DNA of 64,000 nt from Microthyrium microscopicum (Eukaryota): NCBI GenBank assembly GCA_010405405.1, contig MU004244.1, positions 747,895 to 811,894 of the forward strand, read 5' to 3'. Within the stretch, counting starts at the first letter, position 1. Every line of letters begins with the position of its first letter. The notes beneath the pieces were generated by a model. The model was not told the DNA's origin. It ran no database searches and saw nothing but the letters and a program-made list of their open reading frames with translations. This document shows, piece by piece, positions 39,320-63,263 of this stretch. Position numbers and translations under genes: made by a program.

Positions 39320-39445
39320 TGAGACAATTGTCATCATTTCCAGGCTGCATTATCGTAAGATCTCACCATCATTTGATATCTCGAAGAGAAAGGAACAGTG
39401 GATCAGTACAGCATAGCTGGATGTCTGTCACAGTTATTACCCGCC

Positions 39446-40810
39446 ATGCGTCTTCTCAATACAACAACATATGAATTGCAGGAGTCTCGACAAGGCACTA
39501 CACGCCCTCCGTATGCCATTTTATCTCATCGATGGTATCCCCAAGAAATCACCTATGCAACTTTGAATTCTTCTGGACTACAGAACGATGATATTGCTTC
39601 ACCACAATTGGAGAAAATCCGGGGAACTTGTCGTATCGCTCGAGCTGAAAATCTGGAGTGGGTTTGGATTGACTCCTCTAACATCAACAAAAATAGCTCA
39701 GAGGAACTAAACAGGTCTATCAATTCCATGTTCAGATGGTACCAGGAAGCCGCAATATGTTACACGTATTTGACTGATGTCGTCAAATCTGGACAACAAC
39801 CATACACTTCCCAGCAACATGACCCTGAGAAAGCCTCAAAACAACAATCCAGTGTTTTCAAACGACATGACTCTAACGAAACTTCAGAATGGTTTGAGCG
39901 TGGTTGGACACTGCAGGAGCTACTTGCACCCCGTCAGATGAGATTCTACGACACGAACTGGACTTTTATGGGGACGAGGTCGCAGCTCGCACCAGAGATA
40001 GAGAGAATCACTGGCATAGAAGCTAAATTCCTGGATGGATCAGAGGCCTTCAGGAGTGCTAGCATTGCTGCTAGATTGAGCTGGCAAGCCCGTAGAAAGA
40101 CGACTGAGGAGGAAGATATGGCTTACAGTCTCCTTGGAATTTTCGATGTTGATCTGGTTCCTACCTATGGAGAAGGCCGAAAAGCGTTCTTCAAGCTCCA
40201 GCAAAAACTCCTTCAAAACTATCGAGATGAGTCACTATTTGCTTGGACAGCACCAAAAGGTCGTTTACCCAAACATGACCGCAATTGGGGTCCTGACCAA
40301 TGGGGTCTATTGGCACCGTCCATCATCTGCTTTCAGAACTGTGGTAAATTTGTCATCTCAGGCAAATCAAAAGAGCGACCTGCCGGAGGAATTACGCCCA
40401 CTGCAGAAGGAGTGAAATTTCCCATGCCAGCGAGCGAGCTCGAATCGTGGCGAACGTGGATGGGCATGCTCAGTGTTTTTGCTCCTCCATTTATAGGTCC
40501 ATTTCTTTGGCACGGAATCAGAGTTTATAAACACAAACATCGACGAGAATGGTCTCTCACTTTGAATTGTTGGACTGAGAATGGGGTTGGCCAGCTCAAG
40601 CCACTGCAAATCTTCTTATGCCGTGACTCACGCGGTGACGAATTTTGGAGGAGGTGTCGTTGTGAAGACTTGGAAATGGCGCAGAAGATCGCCTCCAACA
40701 GCAGGACTGGAACTGGTGGGTTGTTGGCGTTGACTAAAGATATCACGGTCGTCCAACCAACCGGAGTTTGGTTGGCAGCACCTGCGGAACCAGCCTCTAA
40801 AGTCGAGTAG
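39446..40810 (+). CDS. HET-domain (heterokaryon incompatibility, PF06985-type) protein
   Basis: MRLLNT, PPYAILSHRW, WVWID, EL..SINSMFRWY..A.ICY.YL.DV, SEWFERGWTLQELLAP, EEDMAYSLLGIF, YGEG..AF..LQ, DESLFAW. Confidence 0.92.
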   Translation: MRLLNTTTYELQESRQGTTRPPYAILSHRWYPQEITYATLNSSGLQNDDIASPQLEKIRGTCRIARAENLEWVWIDSSNINKNSSEELNRSINSMFRWYQEAAICYTYLTDVVKSGQQPYTSQQHDPEKASKQQSSVFKRHDSNETSEWFERGWTLQELLAPRQMRFYDTNWTFMGTRSQLAPEIERITGIEAKFLDGSEAFRSASIAARLSWQARRKTTEEEDMAYSLLGIFDVDLVPTYGEGRKAFFKLQQKLLQNYRDESLFAWTAPKGRLPKHDRNWGPDQWGLLAPSIICFQNCGKFVISGKSKERPAGGITPTAEGVKFPMPASELESWRTWMGMLSVFAPPFIGPFLWHGIRVYKHKHRREWSLTLNCWTENGVGQLKPLQIFLCRDSRGDEFWRRCRCEDLEMAQKIASNSRTGTGGLLALTKDITVVQPTGVWLAAPAEPASKVE

Positions 40811-43941: not shown

Positions 43942-45847
43942 GCTGAAGGATTGCGATGCCTAGAGAAAGAAACAACTGTTCGAGATATGTGAAGGGGTAT
44001 TTTCATCAATAGCATTGCGCAAAGAAGTACCTACCACTACAATGTACTGAGTACTCTTCGAAAGCGGAAGAATTGTGGCGCTATATTAATTTGAGTGACG
44101 TGAATCCTGGCTTGAGATAGAGGCTCAAACCGCGAACCTGGCAAATCTGCCCTGTCATAATTGGATTACCAGGTTGAACCGCCGTCTTAGATTATTGAGA
44201 GAAATCCTAGTCATGTGTACATATTGTATTCAAGTCTGGTTGGTAGCACGGAGCCATGGGGCCGATGAAGCACCGTACATGTCTACGATCGCTACAAGTA
44301 TGTCTCTAATCGATGCCCAGATACCCAAGTAAGCACCTAGGTACATAAGGAAGATTGAGTAATGTTTTGGCCTACAGTGCGGATTGCAATAGTGCATCAA
44401 TATGTCCTTCAAGCTGAGCGGAAGAGCTGAAAGAGAGACATCTCTTACATATCTAATGGTTTCATCTGCGAACACCACGGGGGAAAGCTGTCGTGAAAAG
44501 AGATAGGGTGTTAAGCTCTGACTCTAAAGCTGGCTGCAGTTATATAGTCGTCGGTGATTATATGCTGATATAGCAAGGATGTAACAAATAAAAGACCTTG
44601 ATGATCGGACGTTTGGCTGAATATGGATTGTACTAACCTATTCCAGTAGTCAGTCAAAAAGGTTTTTTAGGTCGAACAAAATGAAGTTATTATTCATGCC
44701 TGAATTCCATGCCACGTCTATCATCTACTGAAGTGCATGCAACACACGTATTGCAGAAAGACTTCTATGTAGAGTCTAGGAGCAATGGATTGTCCAGATG
44801 ATCAGATCTTATACTTGAGCTGTGACCTAAATTGAGGTTTTGTATTGAGTTGAGAGTAGGTAACAAGTGTACTGACTTGGTCTCACAGTCAAGGTTATGG
44901 ACGGCCGGTTTCATTAGAGTATCCTTCCTTGACATCACGCTCCACGTCATATCAGCTTTTGTGTGGCGCCGATGGAAGAGAAAGTCTCATAACAGCGAGC
45001 ACAAGAGGAACTTCCTTGGAAGCCTACGGAGGATAAGAAGGTATGCTGAATACCATCTGTGCGCTGAACACTCTTCCAGCTTAGCAAACTCATCGAGCAC
45101 AAGATAAGTCGAATTATGGATGGTGATATCATTTCATAGATAGGAATCTCTATCGGTGTCAAAATGGTGATGGGCGTGGTGTTGAGATTTGCAACGCAAT
45201 GTTTACTTGCCAGTCGTGATGAACTAGTCCATTATGGATTTAGCGTGCCAAGGTCTCACCATTCCCTTTTGGCACAAGTTTCAACGCCTTCTCTTTAAGC
45301 GCAATGCGACCATTGATCCTTTGCTAGGCCACTTTCAGTCGAGATGGAAAACAATCCTCTACACGCTGAACACGTCGCTTCTAAAGACTTTATCCAGGAA
45401 CGCCTGGATTCAGTCACCCGCCGACTCGCCCGCCCTGCCTTTCTTCACGACATTAGTTGCAGCCGTCTCCCTTCTCAAGCTGCCTCTGAGTCCTCTCTCT
45501 CCCCCGCAGAACCACCCCACTTTCTTCAGCAACATCCTCAAGCGCAGCCAGTCCACCACGGTCGTCGACGAGCCTTTGGATACGGCAATTCATTACTTCC
45601 ATCTGACGCCCTACAGCGTAGCCCGCTGCACCAGGCCCTTGATTTCGCCCACATTGACGATCCACTCGATGACTGCGATTTGATCGACTCTCAGACCCCA
45701 CTGATCGAGCTTGCCCAAGCTGTCCTCGAACACGATCCAAAAGTCGACGAGGTTACACCGTCCACTGCTTGGGTGGAGCTTCGACGGCTCCAAGATAGCT
45801 TTTCTGCCGCATGGGCAAGCCTTTGCACCTTCAATTGCGCCTTGAAA

Positions 45848-47068
45848 ATGGCTGTCGAACGTGGTTTCAGCACTTTTGAGCACGGGCATAACGATCTCGT
45901 TCTTGCAGTTGACTTTAACTTTTACGGCACACGTATGGTCACAGCTTCAGCCGATCATCGACTCAAGGTGTTCGATCGCAAAGACGAGGCTTGGGAAATC
46001 GTGGATACTTGGCGAGCACACGATGCCGAGGTTGTGGATGTTAAATGGAATGGACCGTTTATTGGTTCAACTCTAGGGTCCATTGGCGAAGATGGACGAT
46101 TCACATTATGGGAAGAAGATCTGCTAGAACCGCCAAATTCTGGCCGACGATTTAAGCGGATAGCGAGTATTCGGTCCGGAACAAAGATGCCTTATTGCAG
46201 CTTGGACTTCAAGAATATACAGGCCGAGACTTATATAGCCTTGATCACAAGAGATGGCTTGTTGTCAATATATGAGCCTGTAGATCATGACAATCTCGGA
46301 GGGGACATGACTGTTATAATGAAAGAAGAGGTGTGTGCAAGTCCATCAAGACAGGAAGAAACAGGGTTTCGCGTCGCTTGGCACAAAGAGAAATTACCAT
46401 GTTGGACCGCTGTTGAAGCAGGCTTGGATCGAAAAGCTTTAAGTCTCGCTGTAGCGGCCATGGACAAAGTCAAAATATACCGCACTGACAAAGAACGGAA
46501 ATGGTACCAAGCAGCAGAACTTGTTGGAGCTCGAGGTATTATCAGAGATGTAGCTTGGGCGAATGGTGCCATGCGAGGCTACGATGTCATTGCAACAGCC
46601 AGCAAAGACGGGGCTGTTCGAGTCTACGATGTTACTACACCAATCGATCATTCTACAAGAGCGGGAGCAGATTCATCATCTTTAGAGCCAGGAACTCCTC
46701 CTGCACCAGCACCTGGGAAGCCACGGATCACCGCACCGTCTGGTCTCGCTGTCGGATTGGCAAACACATCTGGCTTAGTCAAAGATCAATATCGGAACTC
46801 GGATAAAAATGTGCCTGGTCGCATCAGACACGAAGCAAAAATGGTCGCCGAATTGACCGCTCACAACGGCTCTGTATGGAGAGTAGCATTCTCACAGCTA
46901 GGTAAATACATTCCATCCGCACTCAGCCTTATACTAATTGGTCCAGGTGATTTACTAGTTTCTACGGGAGACGATGGATCAGTACGGACGTGGAAAAAGG
47001 CACTGAACGGACTTAGTGGCCAATGGCTAGAATACGCCCAAATCGACATGACCTCCCAGGATGGCTAA
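45848..47068 (+). CDS. SEH1: WD40 nucleoporin / SEACAT subunit Seh1
   Basis: GHNDLVLAVDFNFYGTRMVTASADHRLKVFD, WRAHDAEV, IRDVAWA..GYDVIATASKDG, H.GSVWRV.F...G..L.STGDDG.VR.WK; in-frame intron 46902-46946. The frame is open upstream to ATG 45344. Confidence 0.88.
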   Translation: MAVERGFSTFEHGHNDLVLAVDFNFYGTRMVTASADHRLKVFDRKDEAWEIVDTWRAHDAEVVDVKWNGPFIGSTLGSIGEDGRFTLWEEDLLEPPNSGRRFKRIASIRSGTKMPYCSLDFKNIQAETYIALITRDGLLSIYEPVDHDNLGGDMTVIMKEEVCASPSRQEETGFRVAWHKEKLPCWTAVEAGLDRKALSLAVAAMDKVKIYRTDKERKWYQAAELVGARGIIRDVAWANGAMRGYDVIATASKDGAVRVYDVTTPIDHSTRAGADSSSLEPGTPPAPAPGKPRITAPSGLAVGLANTSGLVKDQYRNSDKNVPGRIRHEAKMVAELTAHNGSVWRVAFSQLGKYIPSALSLILIGPGDLLVSTGDDGSVRTWKKALNGLSGQWLEYAQIDMTSQDG

Positions 47069-47160
47069 AAGCACCATCACGCATTGACGACTTATGTACT
47101 TGTAGCAACTTGCGGATATCCCTTGAAATTAACATTACCAATATTATGTATTCTACCACG

Positions 47161-48125
47161 TCAAGCACACGGCTCTTTCACACCTCTTGTTATCAACCAC
47201 CAATTGATCGGAGCCGCAGTCCAAAAGCCAAGGAACATGGCCACTTGCATCTGCCACCAATACGTCCAAGTCGTCATTTCCAGTCGATAGTTCCAGATGC
47301 CTACCTGATACACAATCATCCACCCAAACGCGCCAATCTCAAAGAATGTCAAGCTCAATACATCGGCTTTGGCGGCTCGCCAGACTGTTTTTGGTCCCCA
47401 TTGGCCGCTCATTGGTGCAATGCTGAGATACTGGAAGACTATGCCGAATAGAAGGGCGAAGGCGTAGCTCACGAGCAGGCATGGCCAGATATCGTGATCG
47501 CGAATAGTGGCTTCTGTCCCATATACGAGCCATTCGCCAACAATATCACCGAGGACGCAGCCGGCGCCGCAGTGTGACACGCCGATGAGGATGGTTGCCC
47601 AGAGTGGGCGGTCTTTGTCTCCTGGCATATGGTGCATGTGGATGTCGTGAGTGGTCATTTCGGGCGCTGAGTGATCCACGGCGGAATGATCCATAGTTGA
47701 GTGATCCATGGTACTATGTTCCATGGCGGCATGGTCGTGCCCGTGGTGATGCTCCATATCGTTTTCTGTATTAGAGCCGGCTTCTTCATCTTTCATGGCC
47801 ATTCCGGCGTGGTGCTGATGGCCCATACCGCTTGCGTTGAGGGATTTGGGATCAGCGGCGCGGCCATATTTAAAATAGAGATATAGCCCAACTGGTCCCA
47901 TATATGTTGCTGTAATTGGATACGTGGGAATCCTGAGTCTGTTAGTATGTATCGAACGAAAGCATGATAAACATACATTATCAACATCATTGACTTCCAG
48001 CCTCTTCGCCATATTATATCTCCTAGTACTATCAAACCACACAATCCGCCAAACACAAGAAATATTCCAGCAATAATGGTTAGTGCTTCTGGTGGATGAT
48101 AGTCCATTCCCATTGAGTCATCCAT
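47161..48125 (-). CDS. DUF4396 membrane protein with His/Met-rich loop (2 exons)
   Basis: Intron 47933-47976; HCGAGCVLGDIVGE, FGIVFQY.SIAPM, KAD.LSL..FEIG.FGWM, YWWQMQVAM.LGF.T..PINWWLI..GVKE. Confidence 0.85.
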
Positions 48126-48676
48126 GTTGTAAGTGTTCAAAGTCTCAAATCGAGTGTTGTTATCAATCTTGCGAGTTTTTCACCCAGTGAAGATTAAATA
48201 GAAGTTATCAAGACGCCATGCCCTGTAATGGTCTCTGAGGTTGCCACAATGCGCGAAAAGTGCCACCAGTCCGAGGGAGACGCATGATTCAGCCCTGTCG
48301 CATTACATATCATGACTGAGCGTGATGAGAATGCAGATGCTGCAAGGGACCAATGATCTGATTACTATCCTTGCGAGTGATGTCACCCGCAATTATTCTA
48401 CAAAATAGATCTGTTGCCTTTATTCGCCCAGAGCCTTAACTACTTTCTGTTTACCTCAAGTCGTTCGTGTGTAGGTCTTCATGAATGGGTGATGAGTTGC
48501 AGTAGATAGAGTACTCAGGTATGATACTCTAGTATCACATGTACAGGTAAGGACTATATCATTCTCAATTGCCGAAGCCGTATAATCCAAAACCTCATTC
48601 GAGTCGACGACTACACCTTTGTACATCTATGGGTATAGTGAATGCCTCCAGTGCCACATGAATCTTCTCATCTTTA

Positions 48677-50106
48677 TCATTTCCTTTGGTCTGTCCTTCT
48701 TATTAAGTTTATCCTCGAGATTCCTTTTGGTAATAGGTAGCCCAGAGCCTCATACTTTTCACGAGACTGAGGTATAGACCAATGATCCAGTTGAAATCGA
48801 ATCATGATCTCTCGCGGGTCAGATTTCTGGTCGTAAGCCAGCTTAGCAAAAGAAAAAAGCCAATCAGCTTGAACTTGGCCAAATTCAGCCCATGATGCGC
48901 TGCGTTCATCACATCCACCGAAGTTCCAGGCGAAGCTGTACAGTTTTGAGGTTAGGATTGTTGAATTTGACTGCTCGGGCGAGCACAGCCATCCTCGATG
49001 CGATAGCCCAAGCTTTTGTAGCTCTGGAGATCGCGAGAAATCAATGGCATCCCCAACAACTGGCAGGGAGGCGGCACCAGTCGAGCCAATTGAGATGGAT
49101 TGTAGAGTTGAACGATGAGGAGCTAACAATATTTCAAACATGAGTAGCTTCCAGTTCACATCATACGGGATCGGATCAGTAGTGTGAAGCTGTTCAAAAG
49201 TAAAATGCTCGAGAATCTTGGGCCACGCGAGGAGGATGGCAAGCTCGGAAGGAGTGGCTTTAAACGAGTAAAGAATGAGAGTCGTGAGACATCCTGTACG
49301 TTCGTGTTTCTGTCTATCATTTAGTACTACCATCCAAAAGTACTCGACTTCACTATTCGGGATGACGCTATTTGAAAAAATCGGTCGACCTACCCCTTTC
49401 GGTCTTTTCTCAAAATGCGACGTCCGAGTCTCCTGTCCAAACTCGTTTCCTTGCTTAGTGTGCCCAGAGACACCATACAAGCAGAGCTTTCGCAAGCTAG
49501 GTATATTGAGGTTCTCGATAATATCGTAAATCAGAAGACCGTCCCGCAAATGTCCTTCAAATTCAACCTCCTGGACTAATGGCATACATTTCAGTCCCTT
49601 CACAATAACGGGTCAAGTGTATTTCCCTTTGCCACTTCCAAACCACCTGAAAGTCTGAACGAAGTTACATTGGGCAACAAAGTTATCGGATCGTTAGCTA
49701 TGTCCTAGTCACCAGGGGACTTGATGAGATAGGTGTCGTCAATGTTGAATTCGATGGCTTTGATGTACGATCGAACATCCGGACTGTCCTGTAAGGACCT
49801 GAGAAGGTTTTTGTCAGCATACACGAGGGCATAATTCCATATTTATGGTCGAGTATTATGGTATGGTATAGTAGCGGTGCTGCAATTTGATTGAAGCGTT
49901 TGCAAACCGTCCAATGTCGGAATGCGTCGGTAGAAGGCTTGAATGCAGTCTCCTGGCTTCCACTTCTTAGGTAATGGACATTGGATCAAAGGATCAGTGG
50001 TTGAAAGGCTGAAAATGTCTCCGAGCAGCTCATTAGGGAGTCGTAATATGAACGCCTGGAGCCGATGCGACGGCGAATCTTGGAAGTCGTGCCTAATAAG
50101 TGCCAT
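48677..50106 (-). pseudogene. F-box / LRR-like protein, frameshifted
   Basis: F-box start ILRLPNELLGDIF in one frame, F-box tail VCKRFNQIAAPLLYHTI in a second, LLRSLQDSPDVRSYIKAIEF in a third that contains an in-frame TAG, then ORF 48677-49603. No convincing introns bridge the shifts. Confidence 0.7.
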
Positions 50107-50805
50107 ATATCGCGACTTCGAAGGGCCGAGTTGAAGCTGCTTGTGTTTGGCTTGCGATAATTATTCGATTCATGCGTTTGCTCTTCTTCGCTTTTCCTCT
50201 TTTAGTTGCTTTTTCTTATCTGGAAGCATTCGACGCAGAAGTCGTCCATTTTAAAGGGATATGCGGTTCGTAATTATCGACTACAGCTATTGTACATAAA
50301 AATAACCTGCCGTCCGTTTGGTTTACCACCGCATTTACGGATTTAAATAGGGATATCAATTGTTCGAGAAGGGATGACTTGGATGATATACTCAAGTAAG
50401 TACGAAATGGAATGTGGAAATGAAGACATTTGAAGTCGGTGGGTAGATATGCAGGCAAGAATCAGGATTCGATGCTGTGCCGCAATCGATATCTGTAGTA
50501 TGGTTCTGCTTACAGCGATTTCCGCAGCTTTCGCGTGTTTCTCGCCGCTTATGTGAGTGAAGGGCGTCTATATCATCGAATCACAGACCTAGTAGCTGGG
50601 GAGCGATCAAGGGGACGAGTTGAAGTGGAAATCTACGACCATGTTGCCATTATCAGTCGTACCAGGTACATCTAGAAAGGACTACTACCAAGTCCCAACG
50701 CGCCATAGAGGAGCGTCCCAAATACATGCCTGCCCATGAGATTCATGAAGTACGTATACCATGATGCTCATATTGGCTGATCATGGGAACCCAAGTTCAT
50801 TCTTG

Positions 50806-52454
50806 TCACGACCCATCGACGTGCGGCTGACCGAGACGCAGCGACAAAAGCGCTCGTACATCAGTAACATACTGCAGTCCCTCAAGTATAGGAATGAGGT
50901 TGAGCAAGTCGTTATCAGTTGGGTCTGAAATCCAGCCCTCGATTGGGACAGCGTTGTCTTGAATTCTAGTTAGAATCCACAAATCAAGCAGGTTAACAGA
51001 ATGCTTACCTTCGTGAAAAACATAGCTCACGGGACTATTATCCACAATCATCACTTTGCTCAGATCCGGTTCGATCAGGACTAGGTCCTTGACGTAGGCG
51101 CCGTTTTTATGCGTGCAGTGCTGTCGATAGTACCTTGCTGAAAAGTACGACTTTTCAAGCTCTAGCCAGTCGATTACCGGATCGGCGTACTCTTGAACGG
51201 AAGCTGTGAATATTACCAGGTTGTACCATTTGGAAACCTGTAGCAAGAAGTTGATCTTAGCTCTCATGATCCTGGCGCAAGTTGCGGTAGTAGACAAACC
51301 TTTCTGAGAAACTCGTCGCAATGTGGTCTCTTGTGTACATAATAGAGAATGGGTATCTGAGGACCAATATATGTGCCACCAACGCCGACTGCATGCTGCA
51401 TTTTTACCTCTACCATATGCCCTTGGGCAAACCGCCCCCCTTTGGAATGACTATGAATTAGCGTTTCATCAAGATCAAGGACGAGTGTTTTCTGGTGCTG
51501 GCCGTGCGATATTGTGTTAGAATACGAGGGATTGCGCCTGGGAATCAAAGGTCGTGGCGGCGCAGGTGTGCGTGGAAATTTGGTGAGCTTGGAGCTTCCT
51601 GGGCTGGAGGGTGATTTTAAGGAAGCCGCGATAGCCTCTTTCGCATCCTCCTTGGTTGGTGGTGGAGTAGTACTCTCCTGTTGCCTTCTTCGCTTGATCA
51701 TTTCATCATTGTGTAGCTTGATTCTTATTGATCTTCTAGCTGGAGATATTTCTTCCCCCGACGCAGACATGGATGATCGAGACCGAGACGTTGTATCGTC
51801 AGTCTGTTGAGGACCTAGCTTCTCATCAAATTCTGAATCAGTCGCAATCGCGGTTGTAGATGAAGCAACCGAAGGAGGGCGCTTTGTTCTCTTTTGTGGA
51901 AGCGGTTTGCTACTGTTGCGATCCCGGCTGCGGCGGCTTGACTCTGACTTTTCGAAATCGCTCATGGGCTCCAGTGGTACCTTCTTTTTACAAGGTTTCA
52001 ACACACGATATACAGTGACGAGAGGAAATAGTGGCGAGAATCGGCCGTCTTCGTCGTAGAACCACGCAATTATATATCGAAAAGGTGCGGCAAGGCTGGT
52101 GACCACCACACGAATAGTGCCAATGAATGCCGAACTCAATCGCTTTGGCAGGGCGCGCCAGCCAGAGGACTTTATGTCGCCGAAATGTCTCGTCTCACCC
52201 AAAAGTGGTGTCTGCTCATTCACATCCATGGGAGGATTAAAAGCTTCAGAAAGAACCGTGTTTTCCTCCGCTCCGACCGAGCCTTCACGTTCCACTTTGA
52301 CCGACAAATGTTCAGCTTCGTCTGTCGTCTCTTGCTTCAAAGTGCGGGATCTGGCGTTTTCTTTTGTCAAATCGGTGGCAGACCCAGATCGCGAACGTGG
52401 TGGAGAGGACGGAGGAGTAGGCGCTATGGTAGAAAGGATATTCAGAGAGTTCAT
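50806..52454 (-). CDS. NEM1: Nuclear-envelope morphology CTD-phosphatase (NIF/FCP1-like HAD), 3 exons
   Basis: MNSLNILS start, hydrophobic membrane segment, KTLVLDLDETLIHS, YYVHKRPHCDEFL, FTASVQEYADPVIDWL, AVPIEGWISDP; introns 51238-51299 and 50958-51008. Confidence 0.92.
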
Positions 52455-53683
52455 GACGCGAGGACAGCCATTCGCAGGAAGTTGAAGGCCGGGAAGAGCG
52501 GTGCCGGGGCCTGAAAGGGTAGTGTACGAAGCGCAGACAGGTACTTGCAGCCCTATTTGGCCATGTGAGAGGAGGCAGTAACCGCAGGTATCACGCGGAA
52601 GACGGCACTTGGAACGGGTGAGGAGGGGCGCACTAGAGCCGAGTGATGCTTAAGACCGTGGGCAATTGAGTTGGCAGAGAGCAGTACTGTAGGCCGTGGT
52701 AGCAATTTCAAGCGCTGGAGGAGATATTGGGATAGAGATGGAATCGAGGACCTGGAGGTTGAGAGAGAGCTTTGGGGTTGGTGATGGTTTGGATGACGGA
52801 GCTGAGCTGGCCAACCAACGCTCGAGGACAGAGCACTCAGCCAATGTTGATTGCTGTACAGCGCTGTAAAGGCTGGCAGCGCACAGGAAGGAGCAATCTG
52901 CCGTCAAATTAAGCGACCCATTGGATGCGCTCTTTTAAAATTCAATATCTCTAAAAGGTATTGAATCAAGACATTGACAAATAAAAACTTTTAAATAGGT
53001 GGCACTTGCTCGTTTGTCAAGTATTCAACGCTTCCGATGGGAGCCAGATCCTTCTTTATTTATCAACTCTTATGACAGATATCGTAGTTACTGGGAACTA
53101 TTTCAACAGATCATGTCTTCTGGCACTTTATCATGAACAAGTTTCCAGTTCTATCACAAACTTGTAACTTATCTCACGCATTCGATGGCAAGTGAAGCAC
53201 TCGAAAATTAGCGATTTAGATGGTGGACATGCCACTTGATGGGACCATCCTTTTGGAAATGGTTCGCTTATTCTGACAACTGAAAAGCGAAATCTGGGGT
53301 TGATCTGAAGTAAAAACTGGATTTCAGGTAAAAGATTGCAATTACCATCGCACTTGATGAATCCCAAAAAATCAATGCATCTAACGGGTTCTAGAGCAGT
53401 TTTTTGATAAGAAATGTTATGGGAGACATTGTAGGCGATGGGAACAAGCGCCTGAACGGCTCGCTTATTTTGACGCCGATATGATGCAGGGGAAGGTGCC
53501 CCGGCTTTGCCAAGACCTACAAACAGTCATCCAAAGTTCGACAAATATAAAAATTTATAACCAATTCATGACTGCCCACCTTTCCCCGGCCTAAAATACC
53601 ACCGCTTCCAAACTCAGATTTGTCCTTCGCCATTACATAACCCATCTGATCACGCAAGACATAGCGCCGAATCACCTCTGATT

Positions 53684-55143
53684 ATGCCTGGCAAGGGCTT
53701 TCGAACGCCTGGCCTGGAGTCGTTCGTCGACAACCTCGATGAATTTAAGCTGGAGCGCTCAACAGAAGTACTCATCCAACTACTCGCTCGTCGACAGATC
53801 TCTGGCTCGAAGAATTGTGCCATCGCAGTTGCAGGATTACTACTTCGCATAGTCCAGGACTCCCCAGCAAACAGTGTCCAAGATCTTCTTGATCAGGTCT
53901 CACAGATTGGACAGCGCCTCATCGCTGCCCAACCTAGAGAGTTGGCAGTGGGAAACATCGTACGCCGTGTTCTAGGACTCATTCGAGAAGTGTCAGGAAT
54001 TGGGCAAGACGATGAAATCCGGAGTGAGCTATCGTCTATGCTTGATGGCCAGGATGGGTTAAATCGACCAGAAATGCTGCACAGCATATCTACCTATAGT
54101 CCCCTACGACATGCAGCTTCAGAATTCACAGGCGCTTCTACTCCGGAATCTCCACAACCCATCAAGCGCCCCAATTTTGCGCAGAGTGGCTACTCTTCAT
54201 TCGCTATGCCTTCGACCAAGACTGCCATGAACCTCTTTGGCCTGCTGGCTGAGCCCAGTTACTCTCCGACTGGTACACCACCAATCACAAACCGCGAATC
54301 GCCTGCCCTCAGCACCAAAAACCTAAACATCATACAAGAGCAGGCAAGCATCAAAGAAACTATCCAAGAGATAGGGGATGGCATGCGGGAGCTTCTGGAT
54401 GAAGTTGACTTAGCTGCCGAACAGATCTCCGAGTCTGCGACCGACTACATCAACAGCAACGACATGATTATGGCTCAAGGTCTCTCTGATACCACCCACA
54501 AGTTCCTCGCTGAAGCCGCTCGAAAGCGCAAATTCACCGTGTTCGTTGTCGAAGGGGAACCAAATGAGGGCCAGGCCACCCGCAATATGATACTCTACGG
54601 ATCAGCCAAATCTCCCAGCGACGACGATGGCCAAGAGGGTACCACAAAAAGACTCGTTGACTTGGGCGTCAACGTCGTTCTTATCCCGGATAGCGCGATC
54701 TTTGCAATCATGTCGACCGTTACCAAGGTCCTTCTTGCTCCGCAAGCCGTACTTGCCAATGGTGGCCTAGTCGCCAATGTAGGCACCAGCATGATCGCGG
54801 CTGCCGCACAGGCACATAAGGTTCCCGTTTTGGCACTAAGCGGTGTCTACAAACTGAGTCCTCTCTACCCACTCGATACAGACGAACTACGCGAAATAGG
54901 AAGCGCGAGTGGTCTAGGCGGTAGCGTAGGAAGCTGGGGGAAGGTGAACGTGATGAACCCAATGTGGGATTACGTGGAGCCTGAAAAAGTGAATTTATAT
55001 ATCACGAATCTGTAAGCACCATTTCCATTTTGGGAAGGCAAGACTAACACAAGTATAGCGGAGGACATGCGCCTTCATATCTTTACCGCATCGTGGCAGA
55101 CCATTATGACAAAGAGGACATCAATCTGGGAACAGACATGTGA
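53684..55143 (+). CDS. GCD7: Translation initiation factor eIF2B beta subunit (2 exons)
   Basis: LARRQISGS, AAQPRELAVGNIVRRVLGLIRE, IPDSAIFAIMS.V.KV, GVYKLSPLYP, DYV.PE.V.LYITN|LGGHAPSYLYRIVADHY. Confidence 0.93.
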
Positions 55144-55527
55144 TTCGATGGCCAGAATAAGAGTCGATAAAACTGAATAGTCGACGCAAAAACATATGAT
55201 ATGATGGCTGCCCGCCAGAGTCGATAATACTTTAAGAGTTGATGGGCGACATGTGATGCGATAGGAGAAGTGCAGTTTTACGACCAAGATCTGGTGAAGG
55301 AGAAAACGACAGAAACGCGAGGAAATGACCATCCCGCTTTGCATTATAGATCATGATACCCAATTGTTTTAGCAAAAAGACAGCTGGCAAACGCCGCCGT
55401 CCACAATTCATTCATTCATACCAACAATCCAGCGCTAATTCGCTATGCAAAATCGCAATTCCATGCTACCAACGCTATGACAAACAAATCTATGTATGAG
55501 TATTCCCGAACAACAAAATGCCAAACC

Positions 55528-57399
55528 TCACGACTTCTCCATCCACTCCAGATCATCCAAAGCTGCTTTACCCGCCAACTGCCCATTGCCCACCCAAAAC
55601 GCAACGCCCAGCCCCAGCGGCACGGCAATCAAAATCGTCCAAAACGCTGCTCCCGCCCACTTGCGTCCACCCGCTGAACAAGGCACTGCCGTATCAACTT
55701 GCACGGCCGGCTCATCCTTTAGCGAAAACACATTATTGAACAGACTCTCCAGTCCAGTTTCCGCCTCGGGAACCTGAATCCTCGGATTCCGCATCTCCAT
55801 CTCACGCCCGCGTGACTCCGCTGGCAATAACCCGCCCTTCCCGCCAAGTCCAAACGCTTGCGCAAACTGCGTCCGCGTCTCCTCTGGCGCCCTTGCAAAC
55901 TTTGCTTGCGCTCTCGGTCTCACTGCCGCATGCGCTGGATGGACTGGCGCAGGAGGTAGATCGAAGTTGAATGCTGAGAAACTATTGCGTGTCGGCGTGC
56001 TTGCGTCCTCTTGAGGATGCCGTGGCTGGACTGCCTGGCGCGGCGTGAAGGTTGGTGTGGTGGGTGACCAGTCCATCTCGGAGCCTGTGTCGCCGCTGTC
56101 GGACAGCCGATTGCGATCGAAGAGCGAGGTGAGGGATGTGGAGATTACGGATGGTTGGCGGGCGGAGCGCGCGTGTTGCGGAGTGGTGGGCGCAAGGGCG
56201 GAAAGGGGAAATCCTGAGTTAGGTGCTTGAGGAGAGGCGCCGGAGGGGAAGAAGTTGGTGTCTTCGAGTGTAAGGGGGGCAGCGCCGGTGGCTTCGACAC
56301 GTTGGAGCTTGTAATCGCCTATGACAGGACGTTTTTGGAATTTGACGACGGTCATAGAGGATAGGGTGCACTGTGTGCTGTTAGCAATTGGAGTGGAATA
56401 AAAATAGAGAGAACTTACCACGATGGTGAAGACTATCATAAAACCATGGATGGCATGAGGGGGAAGACTTGTTGAAGCATTTGGATCTTTCAAAAACCAG
56501 AACGCGCACGCTCTCGCTCCGAGAAATAGTACCTGTAGAAAATAATAGTCGTTGAGATTTGTAAGACGACCTTGCCCAGTAGCTGATCCAGATATCTTGT
56601 TGTTCCACCATATAGACAAGAGGCCAGCCAGCAGAAAGTACTGAAGCACATCCGTCATCTCAGAGTAGCATGACATTCCTGTTTGTTGCGCTACGAATGC
56701 AGAGGCAACGCACGAAGGAAAAGAAAGCCTCGAATCAATCGTATTGTCAACTATGATGCCAAGTCCGTGCCAGATCAACTGGCCGAGAATACTGATCCAC
56801 CATGCCAGTGCGCCAGCCAATATTACTAGATCTTTAGCATTGCTCCGACCGTATATCATAGCCTGTCCGTTCCTGGTTCTTTCTAGGGACAGTTTGAGGT
56901 TTTCAGTTCGCGCTAAATAGGTCATGCTCTCTAATCGATTGTTGACCAGCCGTACGCAATTCGGACAGACTTGGGGATATCGTTCCTCGAGTTGCTTGCG
57001 GTATGTAGGTAAGTTCGCTTCGTATTCGCGATATTTGGGATCAGACGGATCTGGGAGATAGGTGGCAAGGGCTTGAAGTTGAAAGTTCTGGTTCTTTTGA
57101 CACGTTGGACAGAAAATGTTGTCGGAGGCGGAAGACAGGTCGGGGGAAATGGATCTCGACTGCTCTACAGCATATTGCTGAGGTCTATCAGGAGATGCTG
57201 AGGCTGGCACATCTGTGATGTCGCCATTCTAAAGAAAGGTCAGAAAAGCATAGAAAGTAGACGAGAAACTCACCTCGTCTAAGTAGTTGACAGCGTCGCA
57301 TTCTGCACAGCGAAACTGGCGAATAGATGGATGACGGTTCTGGGAAGACTTGTGGCCGCAGTAGAAGCATACGAGCTTTCGACGCAAGAGATAAGGCAT
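55528..57399 (-). CDS. IMA1: Integral inner nuclear membrane protein Ima1 (Samp1/TMEM201 family), 3 exons
   Basis: Exon 1 MPYLLRRKLVCFYCG...FRCAECDAVNYLDE|NGDITD, then FCPTCQKNQ, YLPD..DP.Y..YE, LEERYPQVC.NC; TM helices; ETGLESLFN..FSL.DEP. Confidence 0.92.
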
Positions 57400-57901
57400 T
57401 GTTTATGCTATACAGAAAACATTCTGCAGTGGAGGTGGTGGTGAGAAAAAGGGCAAGGCTCAATTACTAAATAAGTTGGCCAGAGTGTTGTCGCTGTTAT
57501 GGACAAGTTCTCGAGTGTCGCAACTTTTAAGTTGTTGATGTTTTTGAGGCGGCCACCCGGACCTAACCGGATTTAAATTAGCCCCAACCCACCTCAGGCA
57601 AGAAGGCCTCTCACATTTCCAGGCTAGGAACATTTCAATGCCATCAAAATCTTGACATCTCAATTGCTCCTTGATACATCTACTTCGATTCAAAATCTTC
57701 TGGTCACTGTTGCTTTTGTAGCCATTGGATCCGCTTAGAAATCATCCAAGTGATATCCCAAGTGATCCATACATCTTTTTCAGCCGTTCGCTGGCCTTAA
57801 ATCTCCTCCATATCGCCTGCGTCCTCCATGGACTCGATCATTCCTCAACGCGCTCAAGCTTTATAACATCCCTACTGCCTACAAGGCGACACTAGATTGC
57901 C

Positions 57902-59241
57902 ATGGAAAGCATACTACGGCGCAGCGCGCGGGCCATCAAGAAACGCGATGTGTACAAGCAAACGCGCATTGAGAACCTCGAATATAGCGCCAAACAACTC
58001 GCAGCAAAAGCGCTTCGTGAACGACGGCAAAAACTTCAAGAGTATGCCAGATATGCCCCCGATGCAGAAAGAAAGGCATTTTGGCTAGGCGGAAGCACGC
58101 CGTATCAAGGTCTTGGGTACAAAACTCCACCCAAGAGCATGTCTCATACTTACACCGACTTCCCCGACAATATACGCGAAAATCCTGATTACAAGTGGGA
58201 TTTGGGTGACGTGAAAATCATACCTGGCTACTTTCGAAAAGGAGATCGGGTTGTGGTCATCTCTGGTCCAGATAAGGGATTAATTGATACAATAGATGCT
58301 GCTGATAATGACAAGCAAACCGTGCTGTTGTTGAGGCTCAACAGGGTACAGTCCTGACTCCTTTGAATATTGCTTGCTTGTTACTAACTTAACTGGAACA
58401 GATGTATGTATCATATTCGGCCGAAGTCCAGAAGTTATACAAAGAAAAAGTAGGGGAGATGTATGACATGCAGTTACCAGTACAGTACAAAGATATCAGG
58501 CTCGTACACCGACTTGGCAATCGGGACGTCATTGTGGGAAAAATGCTGGTTAGGAAATGCGACGACGGAGAGGGAGGTGTGGCATATCAGAGGTTTATAC
58601 CTGGCACTTATGAAGATCTGGACGCTGCCAACCCGATCGATTATGCAAAGAAAAGACTGGATGAGGACTCTCAGCGGCGCAAACCGGAAATGCTCCCGTC
58701 GGATACGTGGTTAACACAGGCCAACGAAGTCAGCTGGTCACCATCATTGGATCATCTCCCTATGCCAGAAAGTGTGGTTGACGAGATCATCACGCCCTTT
58801 TCAAGACTCAACCCCAATATCGATGATGCGTTGGTAGAGAAAACCATGGCCAAGGAGGCAATCAAGGAGCTCAAACAGCGAGCGGTCAAGGTCATGGTCA
58901 GCTCGCCTGCCAAGGAAGTGTACAATCGCAGACTAGAAGCTGCTCGCTTGGCTAGAGAAGAAGCAGGGCCGAGTGAAGAGGTTCTCTCAATTCTAGGACA
59001 GGCTATGGCAAAGAATTTCAAGGCGACTGGACGTCAACCCGTACCGATAGAATCTAGACGCTCATCTGGAAAACGACGCGAATCAGACAAGGCCACTGTT
59101 CCCATCAAAATCAGATCCTCGAATAGAGAATCATCTGGAAAACCATCGCTACGATCAAAGGCGCCTCTACCAAAGTACAAGTGGCCCACAGTACCAAAGA
59201 AGTCTATACGCGCCAGAAGGTTGGCACAAAACTCCGAATAA
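57902..59241 (+). CDS. MRPL40: Mitochondrial ribosomal protein uL24m (KOW motif), 2 exons
   Basis: Basic N-terminus; FRKGDRVVVISGPDKG KOW motif; PVQYKDIRLV, RFIPGT, DT....A.EVSW.PSL...PMPESVVDE; intron 58346-58401. Confidence 0.78.
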
Positions 59242-59596
59242 ATGTATATATTATCTTCGCACTCCCAGCTACGCAGGCCTACGATGCGATGCATTCGCAC
59301 TCTATACACCACGTCAACTGTAATATAGAACATGTTTTGATACCAACTTCTTCCATCAACTACTTTACCTAGGTAGCTACGCGGCTTTCGCCTGTAAGTC
59401 TTTCAGAAGAGCCTCAATCGAGAAATCAAAATTTCCGTGGGTACGCGGAGTAAATAATAGTATAGCATAACGTGATGTATCTAGCTGATCAGTTTGAGCT
59501 TAATAAGGCATATCGTTCGACATAATGAGCTCTTGACAAACATGTTGTAATTGCGAGATTAAGCACAGCTACAATGCGATACCTTTTTGAACCATG

Positions 59597-62506
59597 TCAA
59601 AGGCCTTTCGCTGCAAGATTCGAGTCCTCTTGTGATGAATTTCTTTCAGAAAAGTTTATGCAGAGCCCACAGCCTGTACCTTCATCACAAAGCGGCCCGT
59701 CTCCATTAGGATGCTTTTGACACATCCAATTCCTAGGACAGTGACTATCCGCGTGGCAAGCCATCGAGGTCATTGCGCAGACTCCGCTGACGTCGAAAAC
59801 AACCAGGCCGTCTCGCCTTGGTGCCATTACACATTGCTGAGATGCCGGGCAAAGCATCTGAGCGCCAGCTGGAGTTCGCATATTGCATCTTGATCCCACA
59901 CACTGGCCATTGACGCAAGCTTGGCTCCCCGGACACGAGTTTTCCTGCGCACAGGATATTACGTTTGGTCGTTTGGAGTCTTTTGTAGACTGGGTAGATG
60001 GTGGCATCTTCTTGGCCGAAGTAGGTGGAGGTCTAGGCTCTGACTATATTGATGTTAGCATCTTCTCTTATCTAATATGCCAGAAACGAGCTTAGAGAAA
60101 CATTAAACCAGCAAAGAGAGGCAAGTGGAAAAAAATGAGAGCGCCAGACAAAAGCCATCAATGAAATCTAAAGATGAAAAGTAAAGATAAAAGTAAAGAC
60201 TGTCTATGCTAAACTGACATATATGCTGACTGAAAACAAAAAAAAAACGAAAAGGAATGTCGCTGAATACAATATGCTACGCTTCATGCTGAAATGCAAA
60301 CAAAAAATCAATGCAAGTCACTCACTCGCTTGAGACAATGACACTTTTGAAGAGACTCTTAAACACTGACCTCTATCTCTCCTCTCTTCTCCTTAGGAAG
60401 GCGCAGCTTGCAAACTCCGTCACAAGCACCGGTTGGACACAAATTGACGGTGGGCTGCTTGTGGCACATATAGCCAGATGGGCACTTCAAAGTGCCATTG
60501 GTAGTGCACGGCTCGACCCTGCGGGCTGAAATCGAGCGTTCTGGAAGGCCTGGCAGGGCTTGTTTTGAGTGCTTCACACACTTTCCACAGACTCTTCCGG
60601 GTGGGCATATTGCATTGGCGTCTGGGACGCAGGCAAAGCCCATTGAGCAATGTTCCCTACAGATAGCCGCTGGTGGGCTGATGTCTGAAGTGGAGCGTGT
60701 AGTAATAGCCGAGTCTTTGGCGCACCTTCCTCCCATATGGCCTACTGGTGTAGTTGGGAACAGTTCACAGTGATAGCCTTGTTGACATTTAGGATATCTT
60801 GGAAGGCCACATTCAGGTGCTGGGACGTTGACATCGGCGGTAGATCGAGCAAAGATTTCCGGTTCTTTAGTGCACACGCCTCCGAGTTTGCCTGTTGGTC
60901 TAGATGGGAACAGTCGGCAGTAAAAACCTTGCTGACATTTGGGGAGTTCGTGGAGGCCACAATCGGCAGCCGGTTGAACATCGACGTCGGCGGTTGATCG
61001 AGCCTTCATCAGCCGTGGTCGACACACACCCATACAAGGAGCAAAGCCTTCAAGTGGAACACAGCTTTCGTGAGGTCTGTTTTGACATGTGGTGCCAGGT
61101 CCGCACTGGTTGGGTTTCCCCATCTGGCATGAGATTGGACCTGCACTGACATCGGATGTCGATCGGGAAGCCATGATGTGGGCATCGGCCTTCTTGCACA
61201 CACCATTATAACAAGGAGCTTGTACGCAAACCAGTTGAGGGTTCTCCTGGCAGATATTACCAGCTCCACACTCGTTGGGTCTTCCGGGAACGCATGTCTT
61301 GATCGGTGGAACGCTTACATCGGTTGGTGATCGGGGAATCATAGTATGGGCATCTGCCTTCTTGCACATACCATCATTGCAAGGCCCAACGAGATTACAG
61401 CTTCTGCCTGGTATTCTCTCACATATAAAGCCTGCTCCACACTCATTGACGTGACTGGGAGTGCATTCTTTGTACGCCAGAGCACTGGCATCGGAAATGG
61501 ATCGAGGGATCATCATGCCATCAGGCTTCTTTTTGCAGATACCCATACAAGGCCCCGTGAGAGACTTGATGCAGTGATCGCCTTCTCTGAGTTGGCAGAC
61601 ATGGCCAATTCCACAGTCATTGGGTTTGCCGATAGTGCATGGTACTATGCCTGAGTTGATATCACGAGTCGTGATGTGAGCATCTGGAACCTTCTGGCAA
61701 CTCTTCCCTCTGGCCCCGGCTTTATAGAGACATTCGAATCCAGGTTTGCAACCTTCAGCTGGACATTCTGATGTAGGAGGTGGAATTCTGGGATCAGAAG
61801 TAGAACGACTGGTGAGCCCGACTGTTTTGTGGGGGTAATTATGCTCCATGACACAAATGCCTCCACAGTCAGCTTCAGGTCCACATGAGGCGCCGGGCCG
61901 TTTTTGGCAAAAGAGGCCAGTTCCGCAACCAGCAGATCCTCGAGTGCCGCATTCCCAGACTAATGCTTCTGCACTGCGGGTAGTGATGGTTGAATTGATT
62001 GACTTATCCGGAGTGTAACAGGTCGGATGACGACGACGGCCTGAGCCAGTAAGCACACATTCTTGTCCCTTTTTGCATAGTTCGTGTCCACATTGAAATG
62101 TGTCCCCTGCGAGGGGGTTCTTCACGGGCGTGTCGTCGGCAACAGAGCGGGCTTGAATAGGCGCAGTGTTTTCAACACATCTGTAAGGGAATAGCGATTC
62201 TCCAGCACTTATTTTGCACTTCTTGCCAGCTGGGCATATGCCTTCTGTTTGTCCGCATAGAGGTCGCTCTGCTACAACAAGAGGCACGGTAATGGGCTCA
62301 ACAGCACGAGGAATGGCCTGGCTGTAGATTTTCTGCGCGCAGTGATCTTCCTTGCCAGTGCCCGGGACGTATCTAGCGCATTCGTATCCATCTGGGCATT
62401 CGACTTGATTTTTGCCGCATTTGGGTTTTGTTGGTTTAGTGTTATGTGGATCGTCGGCGAGAGTGAAGGATACACTGGCAAGCAGCGTGATGAGGATGAG
62501 CTTCAT
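59597..62506 (-). CDS. Secreted multi-module cysteine-rich repeat protein (~860 aa if spliced, 715 aa if unspliced); putative Kex2-processed polyprotein
   Basis: Signal peptide MKLILITLLASVSFTLA; 13 Cys modules in ORF 60359-62506. A phase-0 intron 60044-60370 (GAG|GTCAGT ... GCTAAC..ATATAG|TCA) joins it in frame to ORF 59597-60007, which has 3 more modules. Confidence 0.85.
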
Positions 62507-63263
62507 GATGGAGTGAGTTGAGAGGTTTGTTTGATGTTCATAATTACAATACGAAGATGCGGCGTGGTAAATATATGATTGTCTGCTCCATAGTACCTGT
62601 GGAACGGTAAGCTGTAGAACTCAGATCTGCTTGGGGGCCAATGATCGGATGTGACAGCCTTGTTATTTTGAGCCATTGGGGATTTGATCCAATCCTGACC
62701 GATCCAGATCAGCCAGTGATGGAGCAGGAATGGATTCCAGATCTTGTTAGGAGCATTTTTTCGAGCTTGATTTGGTAACTAGAATATTGTAGGATAGTGC
62801 AATGCGCTGTAGATGGTGGGAACAATTTGGGACGCTCTGTGGTTGAAGATCAGCATATTTTTAGGTTTAGTTTGACAGAATAAAATGTCTGAGGGTAATA
62901 TAAGACTGTTGCTCCTGTGGGTCAGATCCTACGATGATATAAATGCTTCCTTGGCTACCAAGGAGTGCAATCCCAGGGCATATTTCACCACCATAATTTC
63001 CAGATTTAGGTCTTTACCACGTGGTAAAGAACCAGATGAGCATCACCCTTCCTACCATTTGATTGGCGTGGATTTCTTCTGGATGGGGTATAAAAACTCC
63101 AGCCTCAGCCAGGTATTCCTACTTGGCATTCGCGCAGTTAATAGAAACATGAATCCAACTTACACGTGCATTGTACAACCCATCCAGTTTCAGTATGCTG
63201 CTGTTCGTACAATCCAGCCGCTCCTTTCCAGATGCCCACAGCTATGATTATCTTTAATGATGC

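Follow-up and report, generated by a model that had tools for sequence, protein, structure and literature searches.

The window analysed here, a stretch of 64,000 nucleotides (nt) from contig MU004244.1 of the leaf-surface fungus Microthyrium microscopicum (Dothideomycetes, order Microthyriales), contains a two-exon, minus-strand gene for a protein of 860 amino acids (aa) with 80 Cys residues (9.3%). The protein is made up of a predicted signal peptide, 13 small Cys-rich modules (M1 to M13), a short spacer and a C-terminal domain with 14 Cys, and every linker between two modules carries a motif that ends in Arg. Given the fit of this motif to the protease Kex2 and the pattern of its conservation, the best single explanation for the layout would be kexin-type processing of the precursor into single modules, to which we assign a probability of about 0.5. 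Cleavage of the linkers would mean that a single fungal gene gives rise to more than 12 distinct cystine-stabilised proteins of 5 to 6 kDa.

Modules, linkers and the C-terminal domain

The predicted signal peptide covers the first 17 residues and was placed by inspection, with a mean Kyte-Doolittle hydropathy of 2.37 over residues 3 to 17 and T and A at positions -3 and -1 (T-L-A before the predicted cut). The same N-terminus is found in two relatives, P0004 and P0048. The modules that follow are 47 to 57 aa in length, have masses of 5.0 to 6.2 kDa with their linkers and isoelectric points of 6.5 to 9.3, and are arranged as listed here by position in the window and by residue of the spliced protein.

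62456..62506, minus strand: predicted signal peptide, residues 1-17 (MKLILITLLASVSFTLA), from hydropathy and inspection
62306..62455, minus strand: M1, residues 18-67, 4 Cys, ending in AIPR
62147..62305, minus strand: M2, residues 68-120, 4 Cys, ending in IQAR
61976..62146, minus strand: M3, residues 121-177, 4 Cys, ending in ITTR
61805..61975, minus strand: M4, residues 178-234, 6 Cys, ending in LTSR; nearest to the widespread CGxRG...PGASCGPExDCGG type
61664..61804, minus strand: M5, residues 235-281, 4 Cys, ending in ITTR; counterpart in P0048
61502..61663, minus strand: M6, residues 282-335, 6 Cys, ending in MIPR; counterparts in P0004 and P0048
61331..61501, minus strand: M7, residues 336-392, 6 Cys, ending in MIPR; the module used for structure modelling
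61163..61330, minus strand: M8, residues 393-448, 6 Cys, ending in MASR
60998..61162, minus strand: M9, residues 449-503, 6 Cys, ending in MKAR
60845..60997, minus strand: M10, residues 504-554, 4 Cys, ending in IFAR
60695..60844, minus strand: M11, residues 555-604, 4 Cys, ending in ITTR; counterpart in P0048
60536..60694, minus strand: M12, residues 605-657, 6 Cys, ending in LPER; counterpart in P0048
60383..60535, minus strand: M13, residues 658-708, 6 Cys, starting with SISARR and ending in KEKR, a canonical dibasic site
59600..59968, minus strand: C-terminal 14-Cys domain, residues 738-860 (123 aa, 12.9 kDa), preceded by DSKR, from BLASTP and alignment

An earlier reading of this DNA, made from its letters alone (the sequence-only reading), had described 13 modules of 23 to 36 aa with even Cys counts and a shared frame, and the counts, spans and alignment agree with that description. 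From M1 to M13 the Cys counts are 4, 4, 4, 6, 4, 6, 6, 6, 6, 4, 4, 6 and 6, the distance from first to last Cys is 23 to 36 aa, and the common frame is S-x-x-D-x(5-9)-C-x(3-7)-C-x2-G-x2-C ... G-x-C-x(5-16)-h-x-x-R. The columns of the 13-module alignment that do not vary are C13, C21, G24, C27, C46 and R57, the last being the sole invariant column that is neither Cys nor Gly, and mean column identity is 34%. Pairwise protein identity between modules ranges from 0.17 to 0.58 with a median of 0.28, median identity at the DNA level is 0.52, and Tandem Repeats Finder detected no DNA tandem repeat in the coding region. To judge by their alignment, the modules are homologous, old duplicates that have diverged strongly. 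A scan of the window with the 13-module profile found no further copies, and exon 2 was also left unmatched.

The motif [AILMV]xxR[SAD] is present in 12 of 12 inter-module linkers, where the Arg is usually followed by S-T-S-D. All of the linker ends given in the sequence-only reading (AIPR, IQAR, ITTR, LTSR, ITTR, MIPR, MIPR, MASR, MKAR, IFAR, ITTR, LPER followed by ISARR, KEKR and DSKR) occur in the spliced protein, and its remark that S-x-(S/A/T)-D usually comes after the Arg is matched by S-x-x-D at 8 of the 13 junctions. Shuffling residues within each linker gave a mean of 1.52 motif-bearing linkers, and none of 20,000 shuffles reached 12; as the module copies share ancestry, this count overstates independence and is not an independent-trials probability. 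The Arg is encoded by CGT, CGC, CGA or AGA and the Ser after it by TCT, AGT, TCC, TCA or TCG, which argues that the residues were retained while the DNA drifted.

Residues around the putative cut were compared across the 13 junctions. P1 is Arg in all of them and P4 is Ala, Ile, Leu or Met in 12, while P2 is Pro, Thr or Ala three times each, Ser twice, and Glu and Lys once each. Kex2 is described in the accessible portion of PMC8528282 as needing Arg at P1 and as having an extended motif with an aliphatic P4, and the available text of bioRxiv 10.1101/2020.05.27.120113 reports that LxxR junctions of five effectors (SnTox3, ToxA, SIX1, SIX4 and SIX6) are cut by Kex2 in vitro. The 12 of 12 linkers with P1 Arg and an aliphatic residue or Met at P4 fit this extended motif, and at 8 of the 13 junctions P2 is Lys or one of the tolerated residues listed in that portion of PMC8528282. 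Dibasic sites are found at residues 662 (ARR), 707 (KR) and 736 (KR), with three more inside module cores. It was considered whether the linker Arg might be the P1 residue of a canonical protease inhibitor, but this was dropped because 7 or more residues separate the Arg from the nearest Cys, leaving it unconstrained.

M13 and its KEKR are followed by a 29-aa Cys-free spacer that ends in DSKR, and then by the C-terminal domain. A hydrophobic C-terminal tail is absent from the protein, and a glycosylphosphatidylinositol or wall anchor was dropped as a candidate for this reason. The sequence-only reading had taken the last exon for three more modules (4, 4 and 6 Cys), a description that has to be given up: the 14 Cys fail the module profile, with a best score of 6.9 bits. 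The region instead aligns with three other proteins, sharing 44% identity with P0009 (BLASTP E 3e-27), 42% with P0012 (BLASTP E 1e-30) and 40% with P0006 in the alignment (A4), in which none of the 14 Cys varies and an NGDG motif is likewise invariant. The presence of the same domain in P0006, P0009 and P0012 indicates that exon 2 encodes a family-defining domain and not additional modules of the same kind. An AlphaFold2 (AF2) model of this domain reached a mean predicted local distance difference test score (pLDDT) of 70.3 and a predicted template modelling score of 0.63, and no fold match was obtained at Foldseek E≤0.001 or at VIA Z≥2. A word-indexed search with the C-terminal region against shorter proteins yielded 18 candidates, none of which scored; since the three proteins that carry the domain were missed, the search is insensitive here.

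Relatives and domain family

When 1.84 billion representatives were searched exhaustively with a profile, 45 proteins came back at E≤1e-3, the query's own protein included. The closest clade consists of P0004 (464 aa), P0048 (340 aa) and P0005 (223 aa), which have the signal peptide and the linker motif in common with the window protein. The motif before S, A or D is kept in 7 of 8 linkers of P0004 and 4 of 5 of P0048. According to the sequence-only reading, linker arginines that were not conserved in homologues would have spoken against processing; in both of these proteins they are largely conserved. In a four-sequence alignment the R-S-x-S-D and R-S-T-S-D columns are invariant, and P1 Arg is retained at 6 of 7, 4 of 6 and 3 of 4 aligned junctions of the close relatives. 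When compared with P0004, the P4-P4' positions show a conservation of 0.48 vs 0.28 for other non-Cys positions. Modules also correspond one to one across species, as seen for M5, M6, M11 and M12 with P0048, which fits modules being retained as individual units.

A second group (P0006, P0009 and P0012) combines M4-like 6-Cys modules with the C-terminal 14-Cys domain described above. The named fungal relatives, Lasiodiplodia hormozganensis, Rhizodiscina lignyota and Aulographum hederae, are all Dothideomycetes. In one A. hederae protein (P0024, KAF1986838.1) a single copy of the module comes after what UniRef calls a CFEM domain, which shows that secreted proteins of other Dothideomycetes may have the module in one copy as well.

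With a broader profile, a word-indexed search recovered at least 622 proteins at E≤1e-3 among 7999 candidates scored. Many of these are arrays of the type CGGFAG..CP.G..CVDDP.D.CDP..GGADC.G.C, and members with module arrays extend to the Myxococcota (Archangiaceae P0097 and Nannocystis P0155). Precomputed Pfam domains are present on 8 of the 120 relatives listed (six Kazal, one potato inhibitor I and one IGFBP), and P0031 is an additional fusion to potato inhibitor I. The proteins with Kazal or potato-inhibitor-I fusions, from metagenome records, are P0116, P0117, P0124, P0141, P0145, P0148 and P0153, and P0031 and P0137.

The linkers of this wider family are different in kind. In a census of the 149 fetched proteins that have one linker or more, from which the close clade was excluded, the motif was found in 18 of 464 linkers, and the median linker was 9 aa vs 24 to 30 aa in the close clade. 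The unfiltered total of this census included both P0001 and P0003, which are one and the same protein. The rarity of the motif and the shortness of linkers outside the clade indicate that the long hxxR linker is a derived trait of a small group of fungi. Echoes of it are present in some long linkers, with LSAR before A twice in P0036, AVAR or VTAR before S and LSVR before A in P0093 and P0070, and LTAR before A containing the sole Arg of P0129. In P0035/P0156, a more distant relative that is small and looks secreted, canonical KR sites (TKR, QKR, QKR and RKR) flank each of three 4-Cys modules (units of about 40 aa); by its sequence, this is the layout of a textbook-style Kex2-processed repeat protein (KEP), but with Cys-containing units. 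A word-indexed search for whole proteins of near-equal length found only the window protein itself, and scanning metagenome loci with alignment A3 or P0004 gave pattern matches but no confirmed relative.

The sequence-only reading did not recognise the modules as a named family, and no Pfam or NCBIfam model covers them. Scores for the window protein (P0001) stay below the cut-off of every Pfam family: Lustrin_cystein (PF14625) fails with 19.5 bits against a cut-off of 27, and IGFBP (PF00219) is absent from the listings for both P0001 and P0002, which go up to E≤10. Among relatives, P0007 (37.2 vs 27 bits) and P0019 (121.7) pass Lustrin_cystein, making a distant relationship of the module likely, and P0027 passes IGFBP narrowly (28.3 vs 28 bits). 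NCBIfam gave no family for eight of the nine proteins scanned, namely P0003, P0004 and six further relatives, and the ninth, P0116, had a sub-threshold match to NF041328 (25 vs 100 bits). In our classification the module is distantly related to the Lustrin-cysteine/IGFBP-N kind of domain and belongs to neither family at curated thresholds. Its frame, C-x(n)-C-x2-G-x2-C ... G-x-C, is one that it has in common with the IGFBP-N domain (PF00219) and the Lustrin repeat (PF14625).

The AF2 model of M7, built from a 51-row alignment, has a mean pLDDT of 67.2, with 70 to 80 in the core and two short strands, and its linker ends are of low confidence (below 50 for residues 1 to 6 and a mean of 55 for the last block). 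Foldseek gave no match to this model at E≤0.001, the best being 2dsq_A (E 0.83, probability 0.44), and VIA in its wide mode returned three chains at Z 2.0 to 2.1, which is noise level (1boe, Z 2.1, rmsd 3.4, 37 residues aligned). The nearest solved structures, all likewise at noise level, are the IGFBP-4/5 N-domains, sea-anemone Ms11a peptides and spider knottins. A sequence-profile search of the PDB found nothing below E 0.24, and the ESM Atlas gave low-score leads only (Hirudin at 0.77, and DUF7107/Dickkopf clusters) and no usable feature match for the module region. The predicted fold may be called only weakly IGFBP-N/knottin-like.

Gene structure, transcript and genomic setting

The two-exon structure was confirmed by joining a minus-strand open reading frame (ORF) at 62506..60359 (715 aa) in frame to the ORF at 60043..59597.

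60371..62506, minus strand: coding exon 1, residues 1-712 (signal peptide, M1 to M13 and the start of the spacer), from ORF translation
60044..60370, minus strand: intron of 327 nt, GT..AG, from the sequence and the splice joint in run X1
59597..60043, minus strand: coding exon 2, residues 713-860 and the stop (remainder of the spacer and the C-terminal 14-Cys domain), from frame continuity

The intron has a GTCAGT donor, a branch-like gctaac site and an atatag acceptor. The spliced product is 100% identical to P0003, deposited as 'hypothetical protein BT63DRAFT_461018 [Microthyrium microscopicum]' and labelled 'IGFBP N-terminal domain-containing' in UniRef, and the exon 2 product matches the C-terminus of this record. 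No in-frame ATG lies upstream of the start within the open frame.

Transcript evidence comes from one public run (X1), whose label as RNA is a guess and is not on record. A joint in this run from 60043 to 60371 skips exactly 327 nt, has CT..AC ends on the plus strand and a depth of 177.5; its record is 58 nt long and has 28 letters on one side and 30 on the other, which is below the 31-letter bridging rule. A contig of 2466 nt spans 60371-62700 at a depth of 161.8 with zero differences. No contigs of the run cover 59400-60015, which is most of exon 2, and this gap carries no inference. Splicing is supported rather than proven by these data, in agreement with the GT..AG ends and the deposited gene model.

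Several side observations concern the transcript. An intron-containing contig is found at a depth of 19, about one tenth of that of the spliced joint (177.5), and could be pre-mRNA, DNA carry-over or a genuine short isoform. If the intron is read through, translation meets a stop four codons in (the end of the 715-aa ORF, at 60359), and the C-terminal 14-Cys domain would be lost. At 327 nt the intron is long for a fungal intron, and it is A/T-rich, with a 13-nt tandem repeat of 3.1 copies at 60161-60199 and an A-run repeat at 60233-60253. The 2466-nt contig extends beyond 62700 and so reaches 194 nt or more upstream of the ATG, which is either a long 5' untranslated region or an overlap with a neighbouring transcript.

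The neighbours of the gene, in areas 170-2720 (minus strand), 39377-40810 (plus strand) and 45317-58357, are ordinary or housekeeping in character. They include an OPT oligopeptide transporter, a Zn2Cys6 regulator, an MIF4G/MA3 protein, a carboxylesterase, a cupin, an SDR and a HET-domain protein, as well as a mitochondrial carrier, WD40 proteins, a DUF4396 protein, an NIF phosphatase, an eIF2B-family protein, Ima1 and a KOW protein. The surroundings of the polyprotein gene give no hint of a cluster. In line with the sequence-only reading, which had recognised no tailoring gene (DUF3328/UstY) for a peptide that is made by the ribosome and modified after translation (RiPP), no DUF3328/UstY, tyrosinase or other tailoring gene was found in 39 ORFs of at least 130 to 140 aa scanned across the 64-kb window, a scan that shorter ORFs and spliced genes could escape.

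Proposed processing, its alternatives and known systems

In the sequence of events that we infer, the gene would encode a secreted polyprotein precursor whose modules line up like beads on a string. Late in the secretory pathway, cleavage after the linker Arg (P1 Arg, P4 aliphatic) by a Kex2/KexB orthologue, or by some other protease specific for Arg, would release up to 13 different folded mini-proteins, most of them starting with S-T-S/A-D, along with the C-terminal domain. Cuts at the canonical KEKR and DSKR sites would also free the spacer. A precedent in size is Rep1 of Ustilago maydis, which the available text of PMC4617103 describes as cut by Kex2 to peptides of 35 to 53 aa. Once released, the modules may bind or inhibit extracellular proteins, proteases first. 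This role is a best guess by analogy, as Kazal and potato inhibitor I are the only recognised partner domains in relatives and the fold shows a weak likeness to IGFBP-N and knottin-type binders.

A number of observations weigh against processing. Cleavage itself is deduced purely from sequence, and the S/T/P-rich linkers could equally be O-glycosylated spacers. At 11 of the 13 junctions the site is monobasic, without the basic P2 that Kex2 prefers, and the Ala (three junctions) and Ser (two junctions) found at P2 are outside the alternatives listed in the accessible portion of PMC8528282. The word [AILMV]xxR occurs nine times in module cores or the C-terminal domain vs 14 times in linkers, so the word alone cannot define a site, and its context in a flexible linker must count if the site is real. 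Conservation at P4-P4' is barely raised in comparison with P0048 (0.43 vs 0.40), and the Arg is missing from one junction of P0048 and P0005, where the sequence is KIATP. The shared ancestry of the modules tempers the shuffling result, as noted above. The exon-2 domain has no linker-type sites, which also tells against its proposed 'modules' as released units. Finally, most arrays in the family, some of them bacterial, have short, motif-free linkers, and the module evidently works in unprocessed arrays. The peptide-library precursor proposed in the sequence-only reading retains the support of the architecture, the motif and its conservation in the closest relatives; it loses the exon-2 modules and is weakened by the poor fit at P2 and by the unprocessed look of the family.

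The main rival is that the protein is secreted and functions uncut, as a flexible 13-module array with its C-terminal domain that serves as a multi-headed inhibitor or binder, or as a surface or matrix protein. We regard this as possible yet doubtful, and the same doubt attaches to its corollary that the R-S-T-S-D...P-P linker is a structural or O-glycosylated spacer. It is favoured by the wider family, Myxococcota included, in which short-linker arrays prevail (motif in 18/464 linkers, median 9 aa) and the module is fused to Kazal or potato inhibitor I domains as single chains, as well as by the non-basic P2 at 11/13 junctions and the hxxR words within cores. Cin1 of the Dothideomycete Venturia inaequalis offers a parallel, with eight imperfect repeats of 52 to 64 aa on flexible linkers and no mention of processing in the available text of PMC4617103. 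Against an uncut array stands the fact that the only invariant repeat position other than Cys and Gly is the linker Arg, with its aliphatic P4, in ends that are of low confidence in the model. The linkers of the clade are also two to three times longer than those in the rest of the family and their motif is clade-specific, canonical KR sites part the modules of P0035, and a wall-anchoring signal, in the form of a hydrophobic C-terminal tail, is missing.

It is also conceivable, although improbable, that the protein leaves the cell whole and that its linkers are cut outside by trypsin-like or yapsin-like proteases of the fungus itself, a competitor or a host, which would either activate the modules late or make the protein a bait that ties up these enzymes. 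Cleavage after single basic residues is a property of yapsins and fungal trypsins, and monobasic sites with an invariant P1 Arg would suit such non-kexin, Arg-specific enzymes. The low model confidence of the linker ends and the protease-inhibitor domains of relatives, which suggest a protease-related setting, are consistent with this idea. A trypsin-like enzyme, however, needs no aliphatic residue or Met at P4, and the presence of one at 12/13 junctions is a Kex2 signature as described in the accessible portion of PMC8528282. A RiPP precursor of the ustiloxin/dikaritin kind, from which short cores are excised and modified, resembles the window protein in general layout only, in that repeats carrying Arg sites come after a signal peptide. 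This origin is very unlikely, as none of the 39 ORFs scanned in the window is a DUF3328, tyrosinase or other tailoring gene, and the repeats are Cys-rich, divergent and 47 to 57 aa long instead of the short, near-identical cores seen in the available text of PMC7329392.

If kexin-type processing is correct, the gene might, more tentatively, be the founding example of a new fungal class: a monobasic, hxxR-processed polyprotein that yields 13 or more different disulfide-stabilised folded mini-proteins, individually conserved, together with a 14-Cys domain, in the manner of a venom-like cocktail. Such a class would be built from a widespread module common to fungi and Myxococcota that elsewhere travels with Kazal and potato inhibitor I domains. 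Confirmation would justify secretome searches for monobasic folded-module polyproteins and would supply natural scaffolds for stable mini-proteins. Regardless of cleavage, a large Cys-rich family has been delimited, with at least 622 proteins, no Pfam or NCBIfam model, weak IGFBP-N/Lustrin affinity and recurrent fusions to inhibitor domains, and it merits a model of its own as well as one solved structure.

Among known systems, KEPs such as U. maydis Rep1 and the alpha-factor-type pheromone precursors resemble the window protein in having a signal peptide, tandem units, Arg-ending sites and a predicted release of multiple peptides, and its units of 47 to 57 aa overlap in size with the Rep1 peptides of 35 to 53 aa (PMC4617103, in the text available). 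Surveys for KEPs require KR, RR or KK sites and identical or near-identical repeats, mostly of 9 to 24 aa, according to the accessible portion of PMC6339444, and the word 'cysteine' does not occur in that of PMC7329392. By these standards the window protein has the signal peptide (by inspection) but lacks both dibasic separators and near-identical repeats. Among its module junctions, dibasic sites are confined to the end of M13 (KEKR) and the ISARR stretch, and its units have a median identity of 28% and two or three predicted disulfides each. Pipelines that mine for KEPs and effectors demand dibasic sites and near-identical repeats, and a layout of this kind would be invisible to them (PMC6339444 and PMC7329392, as far as their accessible portions go). 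The literature covered, which lay outside most subscription journals and outside the supplements of the KEP surveys, where this gene or related ones may be listed, gave no account of any fungal polyprotein made of diverged, disulfide-rich modules.

The Kex2-processed pro-domain (K2PP) effectors SnTox3, ToxA and SIX1/4/6 have the same type of site, as far as their accessible descriptions go, with P1 Arg, an aliphatic P4, variable P2 and P3, and a disordered stretch beside a Cys-rich domain. These effectors have a single N-terminal pro-domain and one cut, whereas the window protein repeats the site 12 to 13 times between predicted folded modules; an LxxR-type site in a disordered stretch is present and a single pro-domain is not. 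Cin1 is similar as a secreted Dothideomycete protein with imperfect tandem repeats and flexible linkers (PMC4617103), but its repeats are helical, forming a three-helix bundle, with no convertase sites described in the available text, whereas the window module is predicted to have two short beta strands.

A different kind of parallel is found outside the fungi. LEKTI/SPINK5, the Nicotiana PI-II precursors and the pacifastin precursors are chains of small disulfide-rich domains that are cut by convertases into non-identical active units. They belong to other kingdoms and involve other domain families and proteases, and the window protein is without an identified reactive-site loop, Kazal and potato inhibitor I domains being present only in its relatives. 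If kexin-type processing is the right reading, these precursors would be its closest functional analogue.

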